From positions 1 through 38,533 of IMG/VR virus record IMGVR_UViG_2721755643_000003: DNA of 38,533 nt; one strand, given 5' to 3'. Below, piece by piece: positions 25,869-38,533 of this stretch. The position numbers and the translations under genes were made by a program. Source of the stretch: a virus. Taxonomy: Duplodnaviria; Heunggongvirae; Uroviricota; Caudoviricetes. Within the stretch, counting starts at the first letter, position 1. Every line of letters starts with the position of its first letter. The notes under the pieces were generated by a model. The model worked only from the letters and a program-made list of their open reading frames with translations. It did not search any database and had not been told where the DNA came from.

Positions 25869-26171
25869 ATGAGCAGAAAAACCCAACGTTACTCTAAAGA
25901 GTTCAAAGCCGAAGCTGTCAGAACGGTTCTTGAAAATCAACTTTCGATCAGTGAAGGCGCTTCCCGATTATCTCTTCCTGAAGGCACTTTAGGACAATGG
26001 GTTACCGCCGCCAGAAAAGGGCTCGGTACTCCTGGTTCCCGCACGGTGGCTGAACTGGAATCTGAAATTCTGCAACTGCGTAAGGCGTTAAATGAAGCTC
26101 GCCTTGAGCGAGATATATTAAAAAAAGCAACAGCGTATTTTGCACAGGAGTCGCTGAAAAATACGCGTTAA
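25869..26171 (+). CDS. IS3-family transposase OrfA (HTH DNA-binding part)
   Basis: 100 aa ending ...LERDILKKATAYFAQESLKNTR; slippery A_AAA_AAA then G at about 26120-26127 near the 3' end. Confidence 0.85.
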   Translation: MSRKTQRYSKEFKAEAVRTVLENQLSISEGASRLSLPEGTLGQWVTAARKGLGTPGSRTVAELESEILQLRKALNEARLERDILKKATAYFAQESLKNTR

Positions 26172-26206
26172 TCGAACAATGGCGACAACAATTTCCCATT
26201 GAAGCG

Positions 26207-27025
26207 ATGTGTCAGGTATTTGGTGTATCCAGGAGCGGTTATTACAACTGGGTACAGCATGAACCCTCAGACAGAAAACAAAGTGATGAGCGGCTAAAAC
26301 TGGAGATTAAGGTGGCACATATCCGCACTCGCGAAACATATGGAACCCGGCGGCTCCAGACGGAGCTGGCAGAGAATGGCATCATCGTTGGTCGTGACCG
26401 ACTGGCACGTCTTCGTAAGGAGCTAAGGCTACGCTGTAAGCAGAAACGCAAGTTCAGAGCGACTACGAACTCGAACCACAATCTGCCAGTTGCGCCAAAT
26501 CTGCTGAACCAGACGTTCGCTCCTACAGCACCAAATCAGGTCTGGGTGGCGGACCTGACGTATGTTGCCACACAGGAGGGATGGTTGTACCTCGCTGGCA
26601 TCAAAGATGTTTATACGTGCGAAATTGTCGGCTACGCCATGGGAGAGCGCATGACAAAAGAGCTGACAGGTAAAGCCCTGTTTATGGCGCTCAGGAGCCA
26701 GCGCCCACCTGCCGGGCTAATCCACCACACCGATCGAGGTTCACAGTACTGCGCATACGATTACCGGGTCATACAGGAGCAGTTTGGTCTGAAAACATCA
26801 ATGTCGCGTAAAGGTAACTGTTACGACAACGCTCCGATGGAAAGCTTCTGGGGAACGCTGAAAAATGAGAGCCTGAGCCACTATCGTTTTAATAACCGGG
26901 ATGAAGCCATCTCAGTAATACGGGAATACATTGAGATTTTCTACAATCGTCAGCGTCGTCACTCTCGTCTGGGGAATATCTCCCCGGCAGCCTTCAGGGA
27001 AAAATATCATCAGATGGCTGCTTAA
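26207..27025 (+). CDS. IS3-family transposase OrfB (DDE catalytic part; expressed as OrfAB by -1 frameshift)
   Basis: 272 aa in the -1 frame relative to orfA; DDE context VWVADLTYV, HHTDRGSQY, ESFWGTLKNE; the frame is open back to the slippery site. Confidence 0.85.
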   Translation: MCQVFGVSRSGYYNWVQHEPSDRKQSDERLKLEIKVAHIRTRETYGTRRLQTELAENGIIVGRDRLARLRKELRLRCKQKRKFRATTNSNHNLPVAPNLLNQTFAPTAPNQVWVADLTYVATQEGWLYLAGIKDVYTCEIVGYAMGERMTKELTGKALFMALRSQRPPAGLIHHTDRGSQYCAYDYRVIQEQFGLKTSMSRKGNCYDNAPMESFWGTLKNESLSHYRFNNRDEAISVIREYIEIFYNRQRRHSRLGNISPAAFREKYHQMAA

Positions 27026-27368: not shown

Positions 27369-27796
27369 TGTGAATCTCTCCTGTGTTGTGCCGGTCTGGC
27401 GCATGAATGGCGCTGCGGTAAAAAGACCCTTTGCGTCAGTGCGGCCTTGCGATTGACGGCAGTCAGCGTTCTGGCCAGCGCGACATTGTGTTTGCGGGTC
27501 TGCTCTTCGTGGTACTTCTGCATGATTTTCCCGGCCGGCGTGAGTGGTTCCGGCTCTTCCGGTGAACGGCGCGGACGAACGGCAACTATCCAGCTCTGAT
27601 ATTCACTGCCCGGTCGCCTGTTAAGTATGTCGGTGATGGTGGTTGTGGTGGTGCGATCGGGGCTGGCCACCGTGATTTCCAGTTCGTCCCCGGGCTGTGG
27701 TCTTGTGGCTACGCCTCTCAGTGTCATGGCTGGCGTGCGCTGGCGCATAACGGCGTCGAACTGCTGACGCTGCATGGTGCAGTGAAATCGCGTCAT
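27365..27796 (-). CDS. Hypothetical protein downstream of the replication gene
   Basis: 143-aa ORF overlapping the stop of gene A by 4 nt; no family recognised. Confidence 0.35.
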   Translation of the reverse strand: MTRFHCTMQRQQFDAVMRQRTPAMTLRGVATRPQPGDELEITVASPDRTTTTTITDILNRRPGSEYQSWIVAVRPRRSPEEPEPLTPAGKIMQKYHEEQTRKHNVALARTLTAVNRKAALTQRVFLPQRHSCARPAQHRRDSQ

Positions 27797-30285
27797 GATC
27801 TTACCTCCGCTGACGACTCCTGTGTGATGACGATGCGGCGGGTTGTGGCGCTCCAGTACGCGATACGCCCGTCGCCCGGGCGAACGCGGGCACCGTTACT
27901 CACGGAAATAATGGCTGCGTCAGGCAGCTGCACACCCAGCGCGTCGAGTTCGCGGGTGATTTGTGCGATGGTCGTGGTGTCGACAGGCACGACAACCTCC
28001 ACCCTGACAGGGGTGTCTGATGCTGGTCTGGTGTTATTTTGTCCGGTATCCGTGGCGGGCGGCTGATTTTTAAGCTGTCTGATGAGCTGTTTCCGCTCGT
28101 AATGGCTCAATCCCTGCAACCATTGTGTCAGGCCATTTTCCGGAAGTGTCAGACGTTTCTCCTGCTGCCTGTTTTCTGTGCCGGTTCCGGCTGTTTTTTC
28201 GTCGCCGGGACAGTTATTGCCACGAGTCCAAGGGGCGGCAGGGCCGCCCTGAAGGTCAAAACCATTTTCGTGGGTGCTGTCTTCCGCTTCCGGTTTACGT
28301 CTTACCAGCTTCCAGTTATCCGGGTGCGTGCACACACGGGAGGATTCCCCGATGAGTGGCGACCAGATCCCGTAAATCTGTACGCTCTGTTCGCCGTAAT
28401 CGTTCAGCTCATCTGCGAGGTCGTAGGCGGTGCGAATCAGGTAGTCTTTGCGTGGAACAAGTACGCCGCCCTGTTTCTCTATGTAGGTGGCAAAACATCC
28501 GGCATCAGCGGCAGCAAGAACCGCATCCATTGCGTCATCCTTCAGCCGTTGCGGACCTTCCGGGTTGCGTGCCATCTGGCTGGCAAGGCGGCGCAGTTCA
28601 CGCCATACCTGACGGGAGGGGATGCCAAAGAACTGGAACTGGCGGACCCGGTGAAGGCGCGCCCAGCCGATGGCGCGTTCCACGCTTTCTGCCATCGTCT
28701 TTCCTGATTCGTCGTCGATGCGCGGTTTGCCTGTTTTCGGGTCAATGCCATCCACGGAGTGGCTGTCCAGGTTCTTTCCGATGTAGGTGGCGATGTAGCT
28801 GGTCGGCGTACCTTTCGAACCGTCGACGTACTCCGCCTTAAAGCGCGGAGTTATGTCATCGCCCAGCTCGTGGCGGTCTTCACGAATGGCAATATCGCGG
28901 GCGATGGTCACGATGCTGTCGATTTCTTCAGGATGTGCAAAGACCATCATATGCCAGTGCACGGTGCCGTCATGGTGAGGCTCCACCGTGCGGATGCCAT
29001 ACCAGCGCAGGCCCTTGCGGTCCAGTCTGTTACGAACGGCTTTAAAAAAAGTGTTAACCAGATAATCACTGGAATCGCGCATGGTAGCCCCGTTCCATTT
29101 GGGGTTCGGATGACCGTTCTCCGTTGTTGCGTGGTATTTTGACGGGCAGGTGACAGTCAGAAACACCGCTTTGTCGCCACGGGATTCGGCTATAAGTTCC
29201 GCCCCTTTCATGGTGGCCATCATTTCTGCCTTACGGTGAACCGGGTTACTTACTCCCGCGTAATACACTGTCTCGAGATCAATCGTGAACCCGTCTTCGT
29301 TTTCCAGCATGAAACTTTTCAGGAAATCGCGTGTTTTCTCGCGCTGTGCGCGAAACTCGCTCAACGCGTCCTGGCTCAGATAGGGCGATGTTTTTCTGGA
29401 AACCAGACAGGCGGCGCGGAGTTGTTCTTCCCGCCACTCGCAACGTAACAGCCACAGTTTGCGTTTCCACCATTCCGCACAGGTCAGGCGAAGGATTGCG
29501 CCCGGCAGCAGCTCCGTGTCCGGTTCGTTCTTCCGGTCTTTGTCTGTTGTCAGTGCGTCATAATGTGGAGGCATGGTGTGCAGATGTAGCGCCATGCGTG
29601 CCAGCATCTGATATGCCTTCAGCGCCACCTCCATGGTCAGCTCGCCATCTCTGGCGCCAAAGCCATCGCAGAGTGTCTCGAAGGTGCTGCTGAACATTGC
29701 CGCCGTCATGGTGGCCAGCGTCTGTATCTGGTGTTTGTTGAGCTGCGGCAGGTACAGCAAATCGTCCAGGCGTTCACGTCCGGCAAGGGAGCAATAACCC
29801 GGTGTCAGCCAGCGTCCGTCAGTGCGTTTCAGACGTTTGAATATTTTGCGCAGGGTTCTGCGCGCGTAGCCCTCTGCTGGTCGACTCTTTTTGCCTTTCT
29901 GGCGGTCAGATTCCTGCTTCTTACGCAAAAAAGAGAGGCGGCGGCTCAGTGGTTCACGCAGATAAACAGGTAGTGCCTTTAATGTGGCAAAGGCACGGGC
30001 CACCGGGTCTTGCTTTATTTCCTGGCGTTTACTGATGATGTTTTTTATCAGTCTTTCGCGTTGCCCGGCTTCCTCAAGGGATGCCATGAGTTTTTTACCT
30101 GTATCGGATTGTGCGAAAAAGGCTTCCTCCTTCGCTTCCTGTTCTTCCCGGGCCTTTTTGTCCGCCTCAAAGTAGTAACGGATGACGTGTTGCAGTCCGG
30201 TTTTTGGCAACCGGCTGAAGTTCGCGAAGTCATCCGGATTAATAGCTGGCTGCGGTTCATTCCAGCTCCATGCAAACTCACTCAT
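27793..30285 (-). CDS. Replication initiation endonuclease (P2 gpA-like rolling-circle initiator)
   Basis: About 830 aa from MSEFAWSW (ATGA overlap with the upstream gene); HUH motif in GTVHWHMMVFAH and paired catalytic tyrosines in PTSYIATYIGKN. Confidence 0.85.
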   Translation of the reverse strand: MSEFAWSWNEPQPAINPDDFANFSRLPKTGLQHVIRYYFEADKKAREEQEAKEEAFFAQSDTGKKLMASLEEAGQRERLIKNIISKRQEIKQDPVARAFATLKALPVYLREPLSRRLSFLRKKQESDRQKGKKSRPAEGYARRTLRKIFKRLKRTDGRWLTPGYCSLAGRERLDDLLYLPQLNKHQIQTLATMTAAMFSSTFETLCDGFGARDGELTMEVALKAYQMLARMALHLHTMPPHYDALTTDKDRKNEPDTELLPGAILRLTCAEWWKRKLWLLRCEWREEQLRAACLVSRKTSPYLSQDALSEFRAQREKTRDFLKSFMLENEDGFTIDLETVYYAGVSNPVHRKAEMMATMKGAELIAESRGDKAVFLTVTCPSKYHATTENGHPNPKWNGATMRDSSDYLVNTFFKAVRNRLDRKGLRWYGIRTVEPHHDGTVHWHMMVFAHPEEIDSIVTIARDIAIREDRHELGDDITPRFKAEYVDGSKGTPTSYIATYIGKNLDSHSVDGIDPKTGKPRIDDESGKTMAESVERAIGWARLHRVRQFQFFGIPSRQVWRELRRLASQMARNPEGPQRLKDDAMDAVLAAADAGCFATYIEKQGGVLVPRKDYLIRTAYDLADELNDYGEQSVQIYGIWSPLIGESSRVCTHPDNWKLVRRKPEAEDSTHENGFDLQGGPAAPWTRGNNCPGDEKTAGTGTENRQQEKRLTLPENGLTQWLQGLSHYERKQLIRQLKNQPPATDTGQNNTRPASDTPVRVEVVVPVDTTTIAQITRELDALGVQLPDAAIISVSNGARVRPGDGRIAYWSATTRRIVITQESSAEVRS

Positions 30286-30671
30286 GGCTGGTATCCCGTT
30301 ACGCGTTGCCACTCCTGCGAGAAGAGGGCAGAAAGGCGGTTAAACTCAGTGGTGTATTCACTCAGGGAAGCGCAGCCGCCAGCAGTGCGATGCGTCAGCA
30401 TCGCTGCAAATAAGGAGACCGGGGAGTTGTAATACGCCAGCAGGGAGTTGCCGTGTGGCGTCAGGGTGTACAGGGCCAGACCGTGTGGTGTGAAGTCCAC
30501 GCGGTAGCAGTCGTCCACGATGAAATAAAGGGGGCCTGCGTTCTCCGGTTTTGTGGTGCGTGCCTGGCTGGCACGGGCACGGAGATAGAAATCAAGCATT
30601 GCCTGAAGTTTTGGAGCCAGACGGGTGTCCTGTGTGCGCACCCATTTTACGAAGTCATGACGGTCAATCAT
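30282..30671 (-). CDS. Hypothetical early protein
   Basis: 129-aa ORF translationally coupled to gene A; no family recognised. Confidence 0.35.
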   Translation of the reverse strand: MIDRHDFVKWVRTQDTRLAPKLQAMLDFYLRARASQARTTKPENAGPLYFIVDDCYRVDFTPHGLALYTLTPHGNSLLAYYNSPVSLFAAMLTHRTAGGCASLSEYTTEFNRLSALFSQEWQRVTGYQP

Positions 30672-30743: not shown

Positions 30744-30974
30744 TTAATGGAGTTTGTTTTGCTGCTGGATGAGCTGCTGAAGCCCGCGCAGATCATCCGC
30801 CAGATAGCTGAAAACAGCGGCGGAATAGGTGTTTGACAGTGCGTGACTGCGCTCATGCAGCATATTGATGTGCATGATATGCGCGACGCGGAAGGCGCGG
30901 AAAAGTCTGCGGTTGATTTCAGTCTGGATGTGACGACGCGCAGCGTATGCGCGCTGTTGTTTGCGGTTTGCCAT
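30744..30974 (-). CDS. Hypothetical small basic protein
   Basis: 76-aa ORF with Arg-rich N-terminus; lies downstream of a 320-nt non-coding spacer. Confidence 0.3.
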   Translation of the reverse strand: MANRKQQRAYAARRHIQTEINRRLFRAFRVAHIMHINMLHERSHALSNTYSAAVFSYLADDLRGLQQLIQQQNKLH

Positions 30975-31294
30975 GGTGTGGCCTCTACGTGTGTAAGTTT
31001 TGAAAACTCACCATCCAGAGGTCTCAAACTCGGGGTGGTGAGACGTACAGGGTTGAGACTACCGGCAAACGCAGAACCCGGCCCGACCGAAGTCGGCCCT
31101 GTACGCCCCACCATAATTCTGATGCGAAAAAGGTGTGACGATACGGTACGCACAAAAAAACCGCTGGCGCGGTTGTGCGCTACGTTTGTCAGCGGGGTCT
31201 CAATCCCGGCACCCGTTTTATGAGGTGCAGCAGAAATGTAACCTGACTGATTGCGGCATGGCAAGCGGTTTTTTTGTGTGTGCATGATGATCAC

Positions 31295-35903: not shown

Positions 35904-35970
35904 AGTGGTACATTGTGATCATCTAATGGTTCGTGAAATTACTTTAGGGAACAAAACTTCCTATGTCAAC
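35904..35970. promoter_or_regulatory. Lysis-lysogeny switch region (early promoter; repressor promoter nearby)
   Basis: 59-bp divergent intergenic region; on the - strand a perfect -35 TTGACA (overlapping the repressor start codon), 17-nt spacer, -10 TAAAGT; layout as in P2/186 face-to-face switches. Confidence 0.45.
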
Positions 35971-36376
35971 AGAAAAAGAGGAACTAAGCGTCATTATTGG
36001 CCGTCGATTACGGGAGGAGCGAGAGAAAATTGGCATGACCCAAGATGATATGGCGTCGATTTTTGAAGTTTCTACAAAGACTTGGGGGAAGTATGAAAGA
36101 GGGGTGACTACACCGGATGCAGTTATGTTGAATCTCTTGGGAGGGCGCTGCGGAGTAGATGTCTATTACATACTTTCTGGTAGTCGTGCACATGGCATCC
36201 CTAATGCTACTGAAGATGAGATTGAGCTAATTAAAATATATCGTTCTGCACCTTTGGCTGTTAAGGCGGCAGCTTTGGCAGCCTTGACTGCTGGTAGTTT
36301 GTCTCTAGGTACAATAAGAGCTTCTGGCAAAGGCCATCGTATTGCAGGTCGTGACTATAACGAAACGAAGGGTTAG
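35963..36376 (+). CDS. Prophage repressor (XRE/CI-family HTH)
   Basis: 137 aa; HTH in LREEREKIGMTQDDMASIFEVSTKTWGKYERG; divergent from the early operon and on the same strand as the integrase. Confidence 0.75.
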   Translation: MSTEKEELSVIIGRRLREEREKIGMTQDDMASIFEVSTKTWGKYERGVTTPDAVMLNLLGGRCGVDVYYILSGSRAHGIPNATEDEIELIKIYRSAPLAVKAAALAALTAGSLSLGTIRASGKGHRIAGRDYNETKG

Positions 36377-37531: not shown

Positions 37532-38533
37532 ATGTCTGTTCGTAAATTACCTACTGGCAAATGGCTCTGTGAATGCTACCCCTACGGAGCAGCAGGAAAA
37601 CGCATTCGTAAACAGTTTGTTACTAAGGGTGAGGCGCTCTCTTATGAGCGCCGTTTAATGAACAGTAATTTGGGGAGCGAGTTTCAGGATGGTTCTGGCC
37701 CCCGCCTTTCCGAGTTGGTTGCTCGCTGGTTTGAGATGTACGGTAAGACACTGTCTTCCGGTGAAGAGCGAAGGGCTAAACTTGAGGCGATTTGCTCCCG
37801 GTTGGGGGATCCGCTTGCTTCTCAATTTGATAAAAACATGTTTGCCACCTACAGGGAACGGCGATTATCAGGTGAATGGAATCCAAAGGGGAAGAGGAAG
37901 CTTAGCGAAGCAACCGTTAATCGTGAGCAGTCATATCTACATGCTGTTTTTGCCGAACTGAAGCGCCTTGGGGAGTGGTCTGGTGAAAACCCCTTAACTG
38001 GCATTCGCAAATTTCGTGAGGAAGAAAAGGAACTGGCGTTTCTGTATGTAGATGAGATTGAACGCCTTCTGATTGCGTGTGATGAGTCACGGAATAAAGA
38101 TTTGGGGGTTGTTGTCCGTATTGGGCTTGCGACTGGTGCTCGGTGGAGTGAAGCAGAAGGATTAAAGCAATCTCAAGTACTGCCCGGTCGAATCACATTT
38201 GTTAAAACTAAAGGAAAGAAGAACCGCACTGTACCGATTTCACCTCAATTGCAGGCTATGCTTCCTAAAAAACGAGGAGCGCTATTTTCACCATGTTATG
38301 AGGCTTTTGACGCTGCAATTAAGAGAGCGAAGATCGAGCTTCCTGATGGGCAATTAACTCATGTGCTACGTCACACGTTTGCCAGTCATTTTATGATGCG
38401 GGGCGGAAATATTCTTGTGTTGCAAAAAATACTGGGGCATAGCGATATAAAAATGACTATGCGTTATGCGCATTTTGCTCCAGGTCATTTAGAGGCTGCT
38501 GTTGAATTGAACCCTTTTGACAATAGAGGGTAA
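37532..38533 (+). CDS. Tyrosine integrase (P2-family)
   Basis: 333 aa; ATGARWSEA, RITFVKTKGKKNRTVPIS and LRHTFASHFMMRGGNILVLQKILGHSDIKMTMRYAHFAPGHL align with remembered P2 Int motifs (catalytic R...H-x-x-R...Y); its stop is the last codon of the window. Confidence 0.9.
   Translation: MSVRKLPTGKWLCECYPYGAAGKRIRKQFVTKGEALSYERRLMNSNLGSEFQDGSGPRLSELVARWFEMYGKTLSSGEERRAKLEAICSRLGDPLASQFDKNMFATYRERRLSGEWNPKGKRKLSEATVNREQSYLHAVFAELKRLGEWSGENPLTGIRKFREEEKELAFLYVDEIERLLIACDESRNKDLGVVVRIGLATGARWSEAEGLKQSQVLPGRITFVKTKGKKNRTVPISPQLQAMLPKKRGALFSPCYEAFDAAIKRAKIELPDGQLTHVLRHTFASHFMMRGGNILVLQKILGHSDIKMTMRYAHFAPGHLEAAVELNPFDNRG

Follow-up and report, generated by a model that had tools for sequence, protein, structure and literature searches.

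The spacer at positions 30975-31294 of the window, by which we mean the whole 38,533-nt stretch of DNA analysed, very probably encodes on its minus strand an RNA immunity cassette of the type known from P1 immI, P4, N15 and Gifsy-1. Judged from sequence comparison, its repeated motifs are most likely antisense recognition sites that would silence an anti-repressor gene and the replication genes in the prophage. The E. coli prophage that carries the cassette is P88-like (Xuanwuvirus, P2-family), P88 representing a mitomycin-inducible P2-family prophage group (PMC5285337); the cassette itself is part of the early operon. The spacer itself, to which a first-pass annotation had drawn attention, is real: it falls between the stop codon of a 184-aa ORF (31297-31295) and the start of a 76-aa ORF (30974), and RefSeq annotates nothing between these two ORFs in a 100%-identical genome. 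What appeared to be a gap in the early operon would become a defined regulatory node, an RNA immunity checkpoint directly ahead of an anti-repressor homologue and a replication gene. A 1.3-kb query around the cassette has a partial match in 1519 of 5426 complete genomes. In Table 1, we report the features of the interval and its surroundings. An IS600 insertion is also present in the prophage. A tRNA scan finds none in the interval, the only tRNAs of the window being at 152-454.

Table 1. Features of the cassette and of the genes around it, in window coordinates.
Feature	Position	Strand	Basis and remarks
Ash/Eta-like ORF, 208 aa	30668..31294	-	Pfam PF10554 Phage_ASH
sigma-70-type promoter	31235..31264	-	promoter scan; -35 TTGCCA (31264-31259), 18-nt spacer, -10 TACATT (31240-31235)
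IsrK-type sRNA (P4 seqA region), 75 nt	31154..31228	-	Rfam RF01394
IsrK hairpin 1	31228-31209	-	
IsrK hairpin 2	31208-31193	-	a1 in loop
a1, UUGAGAC	31197..31203	-	putative upstream target/decoy in IsrK loop
b1, CAAACGUAG	31180..31188	-	complementary to b' loop of C4
IsrK terminator, hairpin + U7	31154..31174	-	terminator scan; 3' end of IsrK model match
C4-type antisense RNA (P1/P7 C4, P4 CI RNA, N15 CA RNA), 88 nt	31031..31118	-	Rfam RF01695
C4 closing stem, 17 bp	31113-31097 with 31052-31036	-	
C4 internal hairpins	31096-31083 and 31082-31061	-	
b', (UU)CUGCGUUUG	31066..31076	-	loop of C4 hairpin 2; complementary to b1 and b2
a', GUCUCAA	31053..31059	-	single-stranded, between hairpin 2 and closing stem of C4; unpaired Rfam columns
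Fourth GUCUCA copy	31039..31044	-	3' strand of C4 closing stem; pairs with 5' strand GGUGGGGC
a2, UUGAGAC	31021..31027	-	putative downstream target of a', leader of epsilon-like gene
Leader elements	31007..31021	-	CCUCUG (31021-31016), AUGGUGAG (31014-31007)
b2, CACACGUAG, with Shine-Dalgarno sequence	30982..30993	-	b2 (30993-30985) meets AGAGG (30986-30982) of epsilon-like gene
Epsilon-like gene, 76 aa ('derepression' family)	30744..30974	-	BLASTP, Pfam, PHROG
129-aa ORF	30671-30282	-	first of the downstream genes
Downstream genes: 129-aa ORF and P2 gpA-type replication endonuclease	27793..30671	-	would be subject to polarity; Pfam Phage_GPA 4e-129; RefSeq, 100%-identical genome

Two RNAs are encoded in the interval, both above their Rfam gathering scores, which bears out the earlier suggestion of a regulatory RNA. 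The upstream one matches isrK (RF01394) with 67.3 bits against a gathering cut-off of 50, over model positions 1-77 of 77, and its fold has a z-score of -2.2. The promoter found by the scan lies directly upstream, the predicted transcription start at about 31228 is the IsrK 5' end, and a Rho-independent terminator (31174-31154) forms the 3' end. This terminator is the hairpin and U-tract that had been put forward as an attenuation-site candidate, the second of the three earlier suggestions to hold up; both are exact on the minus strand (AACCGC-GCCA-GCGGTT at 31174-31159, U7 to 31154) and occupy the position of P4 t1, an antisense-modulated attenuator. A promoter is present at the equivalent position in all 13 other phage loci, P4 included, and its hexamers are unchanged in 79 of 81 P88-type loci, the spacer between them being variable. 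The element b1 lies within a single-stranded stretch of IsrK. The Rfam c4-a1b1 model (RF03163) reaches 17.8 bits against a cut-off of 46.7 at 31241-31189, and we therefore file the region under isrK; over the 5' half of IsrK in P4, N15, phiKO2 and APSE-1 the same model gives 42-49 bits. Hfq binding and trans-activation of a downstream cistron by IsrK have been demonstrated only for Gifsy-1 (PMC4825925).

The second RNA, 35 nt downstream of IsrK, matches C4 (RF01695) with 81.8 bits against a gathering cut-off of 45, over model positions 1-87 of 87, and has a fold z-score of -5.0. RNAs of the C4 family mature from a longer precursor, with RNase P acting at the 5' end, and repress in trans. Among 18 diverse sequences, 486 of 486 pair cells of the C4 consensus are paired (100%), compared with 32-46% in slid controls, and 14 of its 27 pairs have changed on both sides, a number as high in none of 500 shuffles. 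The single-sequence minimum-energy fold keeps the closing stem and has an interior unlike the Rfam consensus; we set this interior aside because it disagrees with the covariation-supported consensus. The tandem of IsrK followed by C4 recurs in 13 of 13 other phage loci, including P4, N15, phiKO2, D6 and APSE-1. Rfam matches to mir-3622, CRISPR-DR31 and Hrs13 that overlap C4 or IsrK are far below threshold and are chance matches.

C4 exposes two segments, a' and b', each complementary to one upstream and one downstream site. In the window, a' pairs with a1 and with a2 by 7 Watson-Crick pairs out of 7 each. The pairing of b' with b1 has 8 Watson-Crick pairs and one G-U (9 out of 9 in 18 of 20 related combinations), and that of b' with b2 has 7 Watson-Crick pairs, one G-U and one mismatch, and continues by A-U and G-U into the Shine-Dalgarno sequence. 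We collected 89 P88-type loci, of which 81 were fully parsed for element pairing, with the elements extracted in register by a stiff-gap alignment. The 76-aa protein as a single query gave 3 loci in genome contigs, and a profile scan of viral contigs gave 80 loci that were used. The 81 parsed loci contain 20 a'/b' combinations made from 5 a' types and 13 b' types. Both a' pairings are 7/7 in all 20 combinations, the two b' pairings are 9/9 in nearly all, and each of the 13 b' types in relatives is matched by its own targets. Between the window and P88, 21 of 31 differences fall in the six elements, which amount to 52 of 254 nt (Fisher p=8e-10).

The pairing is also specific. Across 14 diverse loci, the cognate a'/a1 and a'/a2 runs have 7-8 Watson-Crick pairs in 14 of 14, compared with a non-cognate mean of about 4.4; cognate pairing of a' is never surpassed by a non-cognate target, and that of b' is surpassed once against IsrK and once against the leader. 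Cross pairings with P88 and Shae_phiSM give less stable duplexes than cognate ones: the b'/b2 duplex of the window has -16.6 kcal/mol, versus -8.8 to -9.7 kcal/mol when the window b2 is paired with C4 RNA from P88 or Shae_phiSM. The window b' is nonetheless the weakest of its family, since relatives reach -20.7 to -24.3 kcal/mol. The 20 combinations would constitute a natural modular set of orthogonal antisense-target pairs, and a'/b' types would predict which prophages are hetero-immune.

The same elements account for most of the repeats that had been noticed. The reported clustering stands for the 6-mer GTCTCA, which occurs four times in the interval (plus strand 31021-31026 and 31197-31202; minus strand 31039-31044 and 31054-31059); it does not stand for four copies of the exact 7-mer GGTCTCA, which is found only twice (31020-31026 and 31196-31202), a count not above chance in the whole window. 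GTCTCA has six copies in the whole 38.5-kb window, where the shuffle mean is 14, and about 0.12 would be expected per 320 nt; by our own arithmetic, the Poisson probability of at least four is about 7e-6. The first three motif coordinates of the first-pass annotation were about 10 nt off. The copy it placed at about 31009 is a2, the one at about 31045 is a' of C4, and the one at about 31196 is a1, so that three of the four copies are functionally linked by complementarity. As a recognition element, the fourth is a coincidental look-alike: it is a stem strand and is unchanged where a' differs, its GTCTCACC being kept in P88, Shae_phiSM, mEp460 and others despite a different a'.

The downstream sites lie in the leader of the 76-aa gene, where b2 overlaps the ribosome-binding site. 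In the leader minimum-energy fold, CCUCUG pairs in cis with the Shine-Dalgarno region UAGAGG. The second leader element is a copy of the closing-stem 5' strand of C4, and this stem-mimic co-varies with the C4 3' strand in P4, N15, D6 and phiON-2011. The gene is related to an anti-repressor: its product is 29% identical to P4 epsilon over 66 aa (BLASTP, E=3e-7), covers phrog_3688 at full length (2e-44), and has a counterpart in P88 annotated as 'derepression protein'. With Pfam PF25738 (Derepression), whose cut-off is 27, the product falls just short at 26.1 bits, and a homologue 76% identical to it reaches 29.5 bits. The 129-aa ORF that follows has no similarity to P4 orf151, and for that reason the parallel with the P4 operon does not include it.

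A 208-aa frame crosses the whole cassette, from a GTG at 31294 directly after the stop of the upstream gene, or from an ATG at 31285; both starts lie upstream of the -35 hexamer, as in a P4-type eta-like arrangement. After IsrK and C4 it continues through the leader and, in the +1 frame, through the epsilon-like gene, to end in an ATGA over the start codon of the next ORF (30671); it stays open down to 30668 in the window, as it does in 89 of 89 P88-type loci. Residues 19-111 match Phage_ASH (PF10554) with 31.3 bits against a cut-off of 26, compared with 82 bits for P4 eta, and the ORF matches PHROG 'transcriptional regulator' families at 1e-18. Stop-codon avoidance in this frame has P=0.004 and P=0.0025, in post-hoc tests on related sequences, and the within-gene synonymous shuffle is weak (P=0.19-0.35). 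In PGAP annotation the equivalent ORF is a partial pseudogene of the 'ash family'. The earlier view that the spacer has no convincing ORF has to be qualified in view of a Phage_ASH score above the cut-off; to dismiss the 208-aa ORF as low-complexity noise was probably too quick, given that match, the open frame and the stop avoidance. The ORF may serve as a translational bypass of the cassette, an idea that reportedly goes back to work on P4 eta by Forti et al. in 1999. The remaining ORFs of the interval, of 126 and 50 aa on the plus strand and 43 aa on the minus strand, have no Pfam, NCBIfam or PHROG matches and are therefore taken as spurious.

Several other readings of the interval have to be considered. 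The first-pass annotation had listed a protein-binding iteron array among its candidates; such an array of iterons or operators on DNA could have the replication protein or an early DNA-binding protein as its ligand, and there is a 6-mer repeated four times within 182 bp near a replication gene, with a SANT/Myb-like DNA binder as the flanking gene. The copies, however, are in mixed orientation and irregularly spaced, and three of them fall in a loop of one RNA, an unpaired stretch of another and the leader of an mRNA, while the fourth is a stem strand. These three change jointly as complements through 20 combinations, whereas one would expect a site for a protein to retain a single sequence; in relatives, the motif is replaced wholesale and complementarity is retained. 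We reject the array because its copies complement one another as RNA segments and co-vary as base pairs in the 89 loci, and we regard it as hardly credible. It is highly improbable that the interval is primarily protein-coding for the Ash-family protein, with the RNA-family matches as by-products. Such a reading would account for the Phage_ASH and PHROG matches and for the conserved open frame, but changes in the a and b elements are compensatory as RNA and freely alter the encoded residues, C4 base-pairing is perfect with many two-sided pair changes, and over its C-terminal half the ORF reads a well-supported gene out of frame. In D6, APSE-1, phiON-2011 and PhiR46_1, both RNAs are present although each of the three frames is interrupted by stops, PGAP regards the ORF as a truncated pseudogene, and the P4 cI, initially read as a protein, is an RNA (PMC4825925, PMC3632133). 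Very unlikely, too, is a relic: an inert piece of an ash/eta-kil cassette that recombination left behind and that has lost its function. The PGAP label 'ash family protein, incomplete' on the equivalent region, the imperfect b'/b2 pairing in the window and the IS600 insertion would fit a relic. Against it, the a set of the window is itself perfect, and the three-way complementarity has been upheld through at least 20 specificity switches with the promoter hexamers conserved as described above, which requires ongoing selection in the lineage.

The most serious contender, which we consider unlikely though well within reach, keeps the same RNAs and places control mainly in premature transcription termination as in P4: C4-a1 pairing would boost the IsrK terminator, and a2/b2 pairing would trigger termination in the leader, or Rho. 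P4 CI does act by termination (PMC4825925), the IsrK terminator is at the t1 position, and the gene order is that of the P4 left operon (promoter, seqA/IsrK, CI/C4, seqC, epsilon, replication gene). On the other hand, the terminator scan finds no intrinsic terminator on the minus strand in the stretch from C4 to the start of the epsilon-like gene, and the leader hairpin is AU-rich and lacks a U-tract. Translational occlusion is favoured by the overlap of b2 with the Shine-Dalgarno sequence, seen in every P88-type locus. Occlusion and premature termination are not mutually exclusive.

With translational occlusion as the preferred reading, the cassette promoter would be constitutively active in the lysogen, the majority of transcripts would end as IsrK, and read-through transcripts would be processed to C4. 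By binding a2/b2, C4 would block ribosome binding at the epsilon-like gene, and the untranslated RNA would be prone to polarity, so that anti-repressor and replication protein would both remain off; the block would extend to superinfecting phages of matching a'/b' type. For a1/b1 of IsrK, C4 binding might enhance IsrK termination as at P4 t1, or IsrK might titrate C4 as in the activation by Gifsy-1 IsrK. In lytic growth, transcripts arriving from the early promoter upstream would include the start codon of the Ash/Eta-like ORF, and ribosomes crossing the cassette could melt the terminator and the target sites, so that lytic transcripts would escape the immunity RNA. Tentatively, and with somewhat less than even confidence, we propose that P88-like P2-family phages hold the complete P4-style design (constitutive internal promoter, IsrK, C4, targets and an Eta/Ash-like read-through ORF), with translation as the switch that blinds lytic transcripts to the immunity RNA. 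If so, ribosomes would cross two RNA genes and, out of frame, the epsilon-like gene, before an ATGA handover to the replication genes. The shared order of IsrK, C4, epsilon and replication gene would then suggest that the P4 immunity and helper-derepression module came from a helper-family phage, or the reverse.

The cassette has no annotation, yet it is an ordinary member of a well-studied system, the underlying biology of which is already known from P1, P4, N15 and Gifsy-1. New here are no more than the phage family that hosts it, its direct link to an epsilon-type gene, and the overlapping ORF, which is possibly translated. As RefSeq leaves the region unannotated or as a protein pseudogene, both RNAs are missed in many E. 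coli prophage annotations.

Each known system shares part of this layout. N15 and phiKO2 (CA RNA, icd, antA/B) have the IsrK and C4 tandem with matching a and b elements; unlike the window, they have an icd-like first gene, a linear plasmid prophage as host, and no ATG-initiated ORF spanning the cassette. P1/P7 immI has a C4-family RNA whose a'/b' pair with a2/b2 at the ribosome-binding site of the anti-repressor-leading gene, C4 blocking ant translation there (PMC12197685), as well as an upstream a1/b1 copy (Rfam RF03163 description). The target in P1/P7 is icd-ant rather than a 76-aa epsilon-type anti-repressor, and the immunity operon is a separate one, whereas the window cassette is embedded in the early replication operon. 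In the P1-like D6, a' (GUCUCAA) and a1/a2 are identical to those of the window, and no open frame crosses the RNAs. The Salmonella Gifsy-1 locus IsrK-orf45 (STnc1160)-anrP also has an IsrK sRNA with its own promoter, and there the terminator is leaky (PMC4825925). From its read-through transcript an RNA of about 80 nt is processed that is complementary to IsrK; the anti-repressor gene comes next, and its translation is blocked by default (PMC4825925), a layout like that of the window. Gifsy-1 IsrK is a trans activator through a 45-codon upstream ORF and translational coupling; the window epsilon-like gene has no such ORF.

A further close parallel is the immunity region of satellite phage P4, with the PLE promoter, seqA, cI (the CI RNA, with seqB), seqC and nested eta/kil, and then epsilon and alpha. 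The P4 CI RNA pairs with seqA and seqC (PMC4825925), IsrK being seqA and C4 being CI (PMC3632133), and Rfam places isrK and C4 at the seqA and cI positions of P4 as it does in the window. The IsrK-C4 spacer is 107 nt in P4, the first regulated gene there is an icd/kil-like peptide rather than the epsilon-like gene itself, and the replication protein is the alpha primase instead of the P2 gpA type. P4 kil is nested in frame within eta, whereas the window epsilon-like gene is out of frame with the long ORF. The window also belongs to a full P2-family phage with its own C/Cox-type switch, the C repressor being encoded at 35963-36376, unlike the satellite P4. Common to both are the order of promoter, IsrK with terminator, C4 and downstream target, an ORF of the Phage_ASH family that starts upstream of the promoter and crosses the cassette, and an epsilon-family gene and a replication gene downstream.

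The spacer at 30975-31294, picked out by the first-pass annotation, lies between two minus-strand ORFs. A 184-aa ORF ends on one side of it with a stop codon at 31297-31295, a 76-aa ORF begins on the other with its ATG at 30974, and the 100%-identical RefSeq genome of E. coli RMDEC364 carries no annotation within it. An Rfam scan of the whole window at the gathering threshold places isrK and C4 antisense RNA here on the minus strand, so the proposal of a regulatory RNA was right. The minus-strand hairpin AACCGC-GCCA-GCGGTT with its U7 tract is exactly as first described (31174-31154), and taking it for an attenuator was also right: it is the terminator at the isrK 3' end. The names of the pairing elements are our own assignment, by analogy with P1; a' and b' are recognition segments of C4, with complements in IsrK (a1, b1) and in the leader of the 76-aa gene (a2, b2). 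The Rfam c4-a1b1 model reaches only 17.8 bits in this cassette.

Features of the isrK-C4 cassette and its flanking genes
Feature	Position	Strand	Remarks
Sigma-70-like promoter	31264-31235	minus	TTGCCA, 18 nt, TACATT; predicted start at IsrK 5' end
isrK (RF01394)	31228-31154	minus	67.3 bits (cut-off 50); 3' end is the terminator hairpin
a1 UUGAGAC	31203-197	minus	exact complement of a'; loop of IsrK hairpin 2
b1	31188-80	minus	in IsrK; complementary to b'
C4 antisense RNA (RF01695)	31118-31031	minus	81.8 bits (cut-off 45)
b' CUGCGUUUG	31074-66	minus	C4 hairpin-2 loop
a' GUCUCAA	31059-53	minus	unpaired stretch of C4 consensus, hairpin 2 to closing stem
Fourth GTCTCA	31039-44	minus	within 3' strand of C4 closing stem
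a2 UUGAGAC	31027-21	minus	exact complement of a'; 4 nt past C4 3' end
Leader elements, conserved	31007-31021	minus	cis anti-Shine-Dalgarno CCUCUG and C4 5'-stem-strand mimic AUGGUGAG
b2	30993-85	minus	complementary to b'; overlaps Shine-Dalgarno AGAGG (30986-82) of 76-aa gene
Upstream genes, in transcription order		minus	Dam methylase, DUF4406 gene, SANT/Myb-like DNA binder
Downstream genes, in transcription order		minus	76-aa gene, 129-aa gene, P2 gpA-type replication endonuclease

The sequence repeats reported for the spacer hold up in part. The 7-mer GGTCTCA occurs twice in the whole window, not above chance. Of the 6-mer GTCTCA, the 38.5 kb contain six copies (shuffle mean 14). Four of them fall within 31021-31202, two on the plus strand (31021 and 31197) and two on the minus strand (31039 and 31054), a clustering that is real because only about 0.12 copies are expected per 320 nt (Poisson about 7e-6, by our own arithmetic). 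The first three coordinates originally given were about 10 nt off. The likeness of the fourth copy to the others is coincidental, since it is unchanged in relatives with a different a'. The suggested iteron array proves wrong: the other three copies are complementary RNA segments with mutually compensatory changes. The original observation is largely real.

Against phage P88, 31 of 254 positions differ, 21 of them in the six elements (52 nt; Fisher p=8e-10), where the differences compensate each other; against Shae_phiSM, 16 of 27 differences fall there (p=3e-6). Duplex energies are better for cognate pairings than for cross pairings with either phage. In all 14 diverse loci (the window and 13 fetched phage loci), each C4 matches its own IsrK and its own leader by 7-8 Watson-Crick nt, against a non-cognate mean of about 4.4; cognate a' pairings are never beaten by a non-cognate one, and those of b' are beaten once for IsrK and once for the leader. 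The P88-type loci, 89 in all, include 80 further loci from an IMG/VR profile search with the 76-aa gene and 3 from a genome scan. Among the 81 fully parsed ones, 5 a' types and 13 b' types occur in 20 different combinations; every combination has 7/7 pairs for a'/a1 and a'/a2, and 18 have 9/9 for b'/b1. The window's combination, found in 5 loci, is the weakest of the 20, with one G-U in b'/b1 and one G-U plus one mismatch in b'/b2. The C4 fold itself has 486 of 486 pair cells paired (100%) over 18 sequences, with 14 of 27 pairs changed on both sides; the shuffled and slid controls all fall far short of this. Promoter hexamers are identical in 79/81 P88-type loci despite a varying spacer between them. 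In the predicted leader fold, CCUCUG can pair in cis with the Shine-Dalgarno of the 76-aa gene, and the mimic repeats the closing stem's 5' strand; in P4, N15, D6 and phiON-2011, it and the 3' strand of C4 change together. These elements suggest an alternative fold of the unprocessed precursor. One comparison locus (IMG/VR UViG_2582580934_000004) has C4 hairpin 2 duplicated with two different b' loops, CTTTGCTCT and CTTGTGTAG, perhaps as an intermediate in recombination between one specificity type and another. Another, with the full cassette and a 92%-identical 76-aa gene locus, is on contig NZ_JBQPOM010000071.1 (226 kb), which bears the name of a Firmicute, Vagococcus sp., probably through contamination or mislabelling of an enterobacterial contig.

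The cassette recurs in other phages. BLAST matches in Stx-converting and other lambdoid phages cover the RNA part of the query only, at about 72% identity. All 13 fetched loci (P88, Shae_phiSM, PhiR49_2, cdtI, phiON-2011, mEp460, ST64B, N15, phiKO2, P4, D6, APSE-1 and PhiR46_1) carry isrK and then C4 on the same strand, 21-107 nt apart, with a promoter directly upstream of the tandem. In P4, the isrK match falls on the seqA region and the C4 match on cI (CI RNA); the equivalence of IsrK with seqA and of C4 with CI is already published (PMC3632133; PMC4825925). In Gifsy-1, a processed RNA of ~80 nt (STnc1160), complementary to IsrK, lies downstream of IsrK and ahead of the anti-repressor gene (PMC4825925). 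D6 has a second, sub-threshold C4-like match (40.2 bits; 1088-1167 of the fetched locus) some 470 nt upstream of the main one, and phiON-2011 an sRNA-Xcc1 match (79.6 bits; 2523-2606 of its locus) beside antB genes. In the lambdoid cdtI, mEp460, ST64B and PhiR49_2 loci, the cassette is flanked by cro and the replication genes and is annotated as the N-terminal part of a long 'antirepressor/Rha' ORF (Ash then Rha domain); therefore both RNAs are hidden inside a CDS.

The 208-aa ORF across the spacer (31294-30668) was probably set aside too quickly at first as low-complexity. Over exactly the RNA region this ORF matches Pfam Phage_ASH (31.3 bits, cut-off 26), it also matches several PHROG 'regulator' families, and its frame is open in 89/89 P88-type loci (68 unique sequences). 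Its GTG comes immediately after the stop codon of the preceding gene, there is an ATG at 31285, ahead of the -35 hexamer of IsrK, and at its 3' end the stop codon shares an ATGA with the start of the following gene. In P4, the Phage_ASH match (82 bits) likewise coincides with the RNA region of the long ORF spanning seqA-cI-seqC, and in lambdoid phages the domain makes up the N-terminal portion of the Rha-type ORFs annotated across the cassette. We take the P4 ORF to be eta. Its start reportedly lies upstream of PLE, only PLL transcripts are reported to support its translation, and this translation is said to prevent immunity-dependent termination. None of the 6 a-types and 13 b-types brings a stop codon into the ORF frame at the three sites (P about 0.004, base permutation). 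Of 144 observed substitutions in the 76-aa gene and its spacer, 143 would create no stop there on the consensus background (P=0.0025 for none); the exception does not interrupt the frame in any real sequence, all 89 loci being open. Shuffling codons conservatively within the gene gives unremarkable values for each sequence (P=0.19-0.35). The frame is closed across the RNAs in D6, APSE-1, phiON-2011 and PhiR46_1, the C-terminal half of the ORF reads a well-supported gene out of frame, and PGAP annotates the equivalent region as a truncated pseudogene. Because the stop-avoidance tests are post hoc and the sequences related, translation is at most plausible from sequence. This ORF leaves the RNA reading intact: within the a and b elements, changes compensate each other as RNA and alter the encoded residues freely. 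In E. coli JNEC-KY172 and 2013C-3033, the frame has no stop at the next ORF and is fused in frame with the 129-aa-gene homologue, giving an ORF of 343-345 aa whose terminal ATGA overlaps the replication gene.

The window is an E. coli prophage of P88-like type (Xuanwuvirus, Peduoviridae, P2 family). At its left end lies a cluster of tRNA-Gly(GCC), tRNA-Cys(GCA) and tRNA-Leu(UAA) (152-454), probably the chromosomal flank or attachment side, and at its right end a phage integrase gene (37532-38533). RefSeq annotation of the identical genome places an IS3-family IS600 transposase with a programmed frameshift (about 25869-27025) directly downstream of the replication block, adjoining a truncated 'plasmid partitioning/stability' pseudogene. 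The 76-aa protein is 29% identical over 66 aa to the P4 epsilon helper-derepression protein (E=3e-7) and scores 26.1 bits on Pfam Derepression, just below the cut-off of 27, which a homologue passes (29.5); its P88 counterpart carries the annotation 'derepression protein'.

In the lysogen, the internal promoter would yield IsrK, and read-through with processing would yield C4. C4 would pair with a2/b2 and occlude the Shine-Dalgarno of the epsilon-like gene; because untranslated RNA is subject to polarity, the anti-repressor and gpA would be kept off, with immunity specificity set by the a'/b' type. IsrK may either strengthen its own termination when bound by C4, for which P4 t1 is a precedent, or titrate C4; for the second, the parallel is Gifsy-1, whose IsrK activates translation about 140-fold in trans (PMC4825925). 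Translation of the Ash/Eta-like ORF may allow transcripts from the early promoter to escape.

The cassette is an unannotated member of a well-characterised phage RNA-immunity class. Three details are new: it lies in the early operon of a P2-family phage, it is coupled directly to an epsilon-type gene, and the ORF that overlaps it is conserved. The order IsrK, C4, epsilon-like gene, small ORF and replication gene resembles the P4 left operon, with the 129-aa ORF unrelated to P4 orf151.
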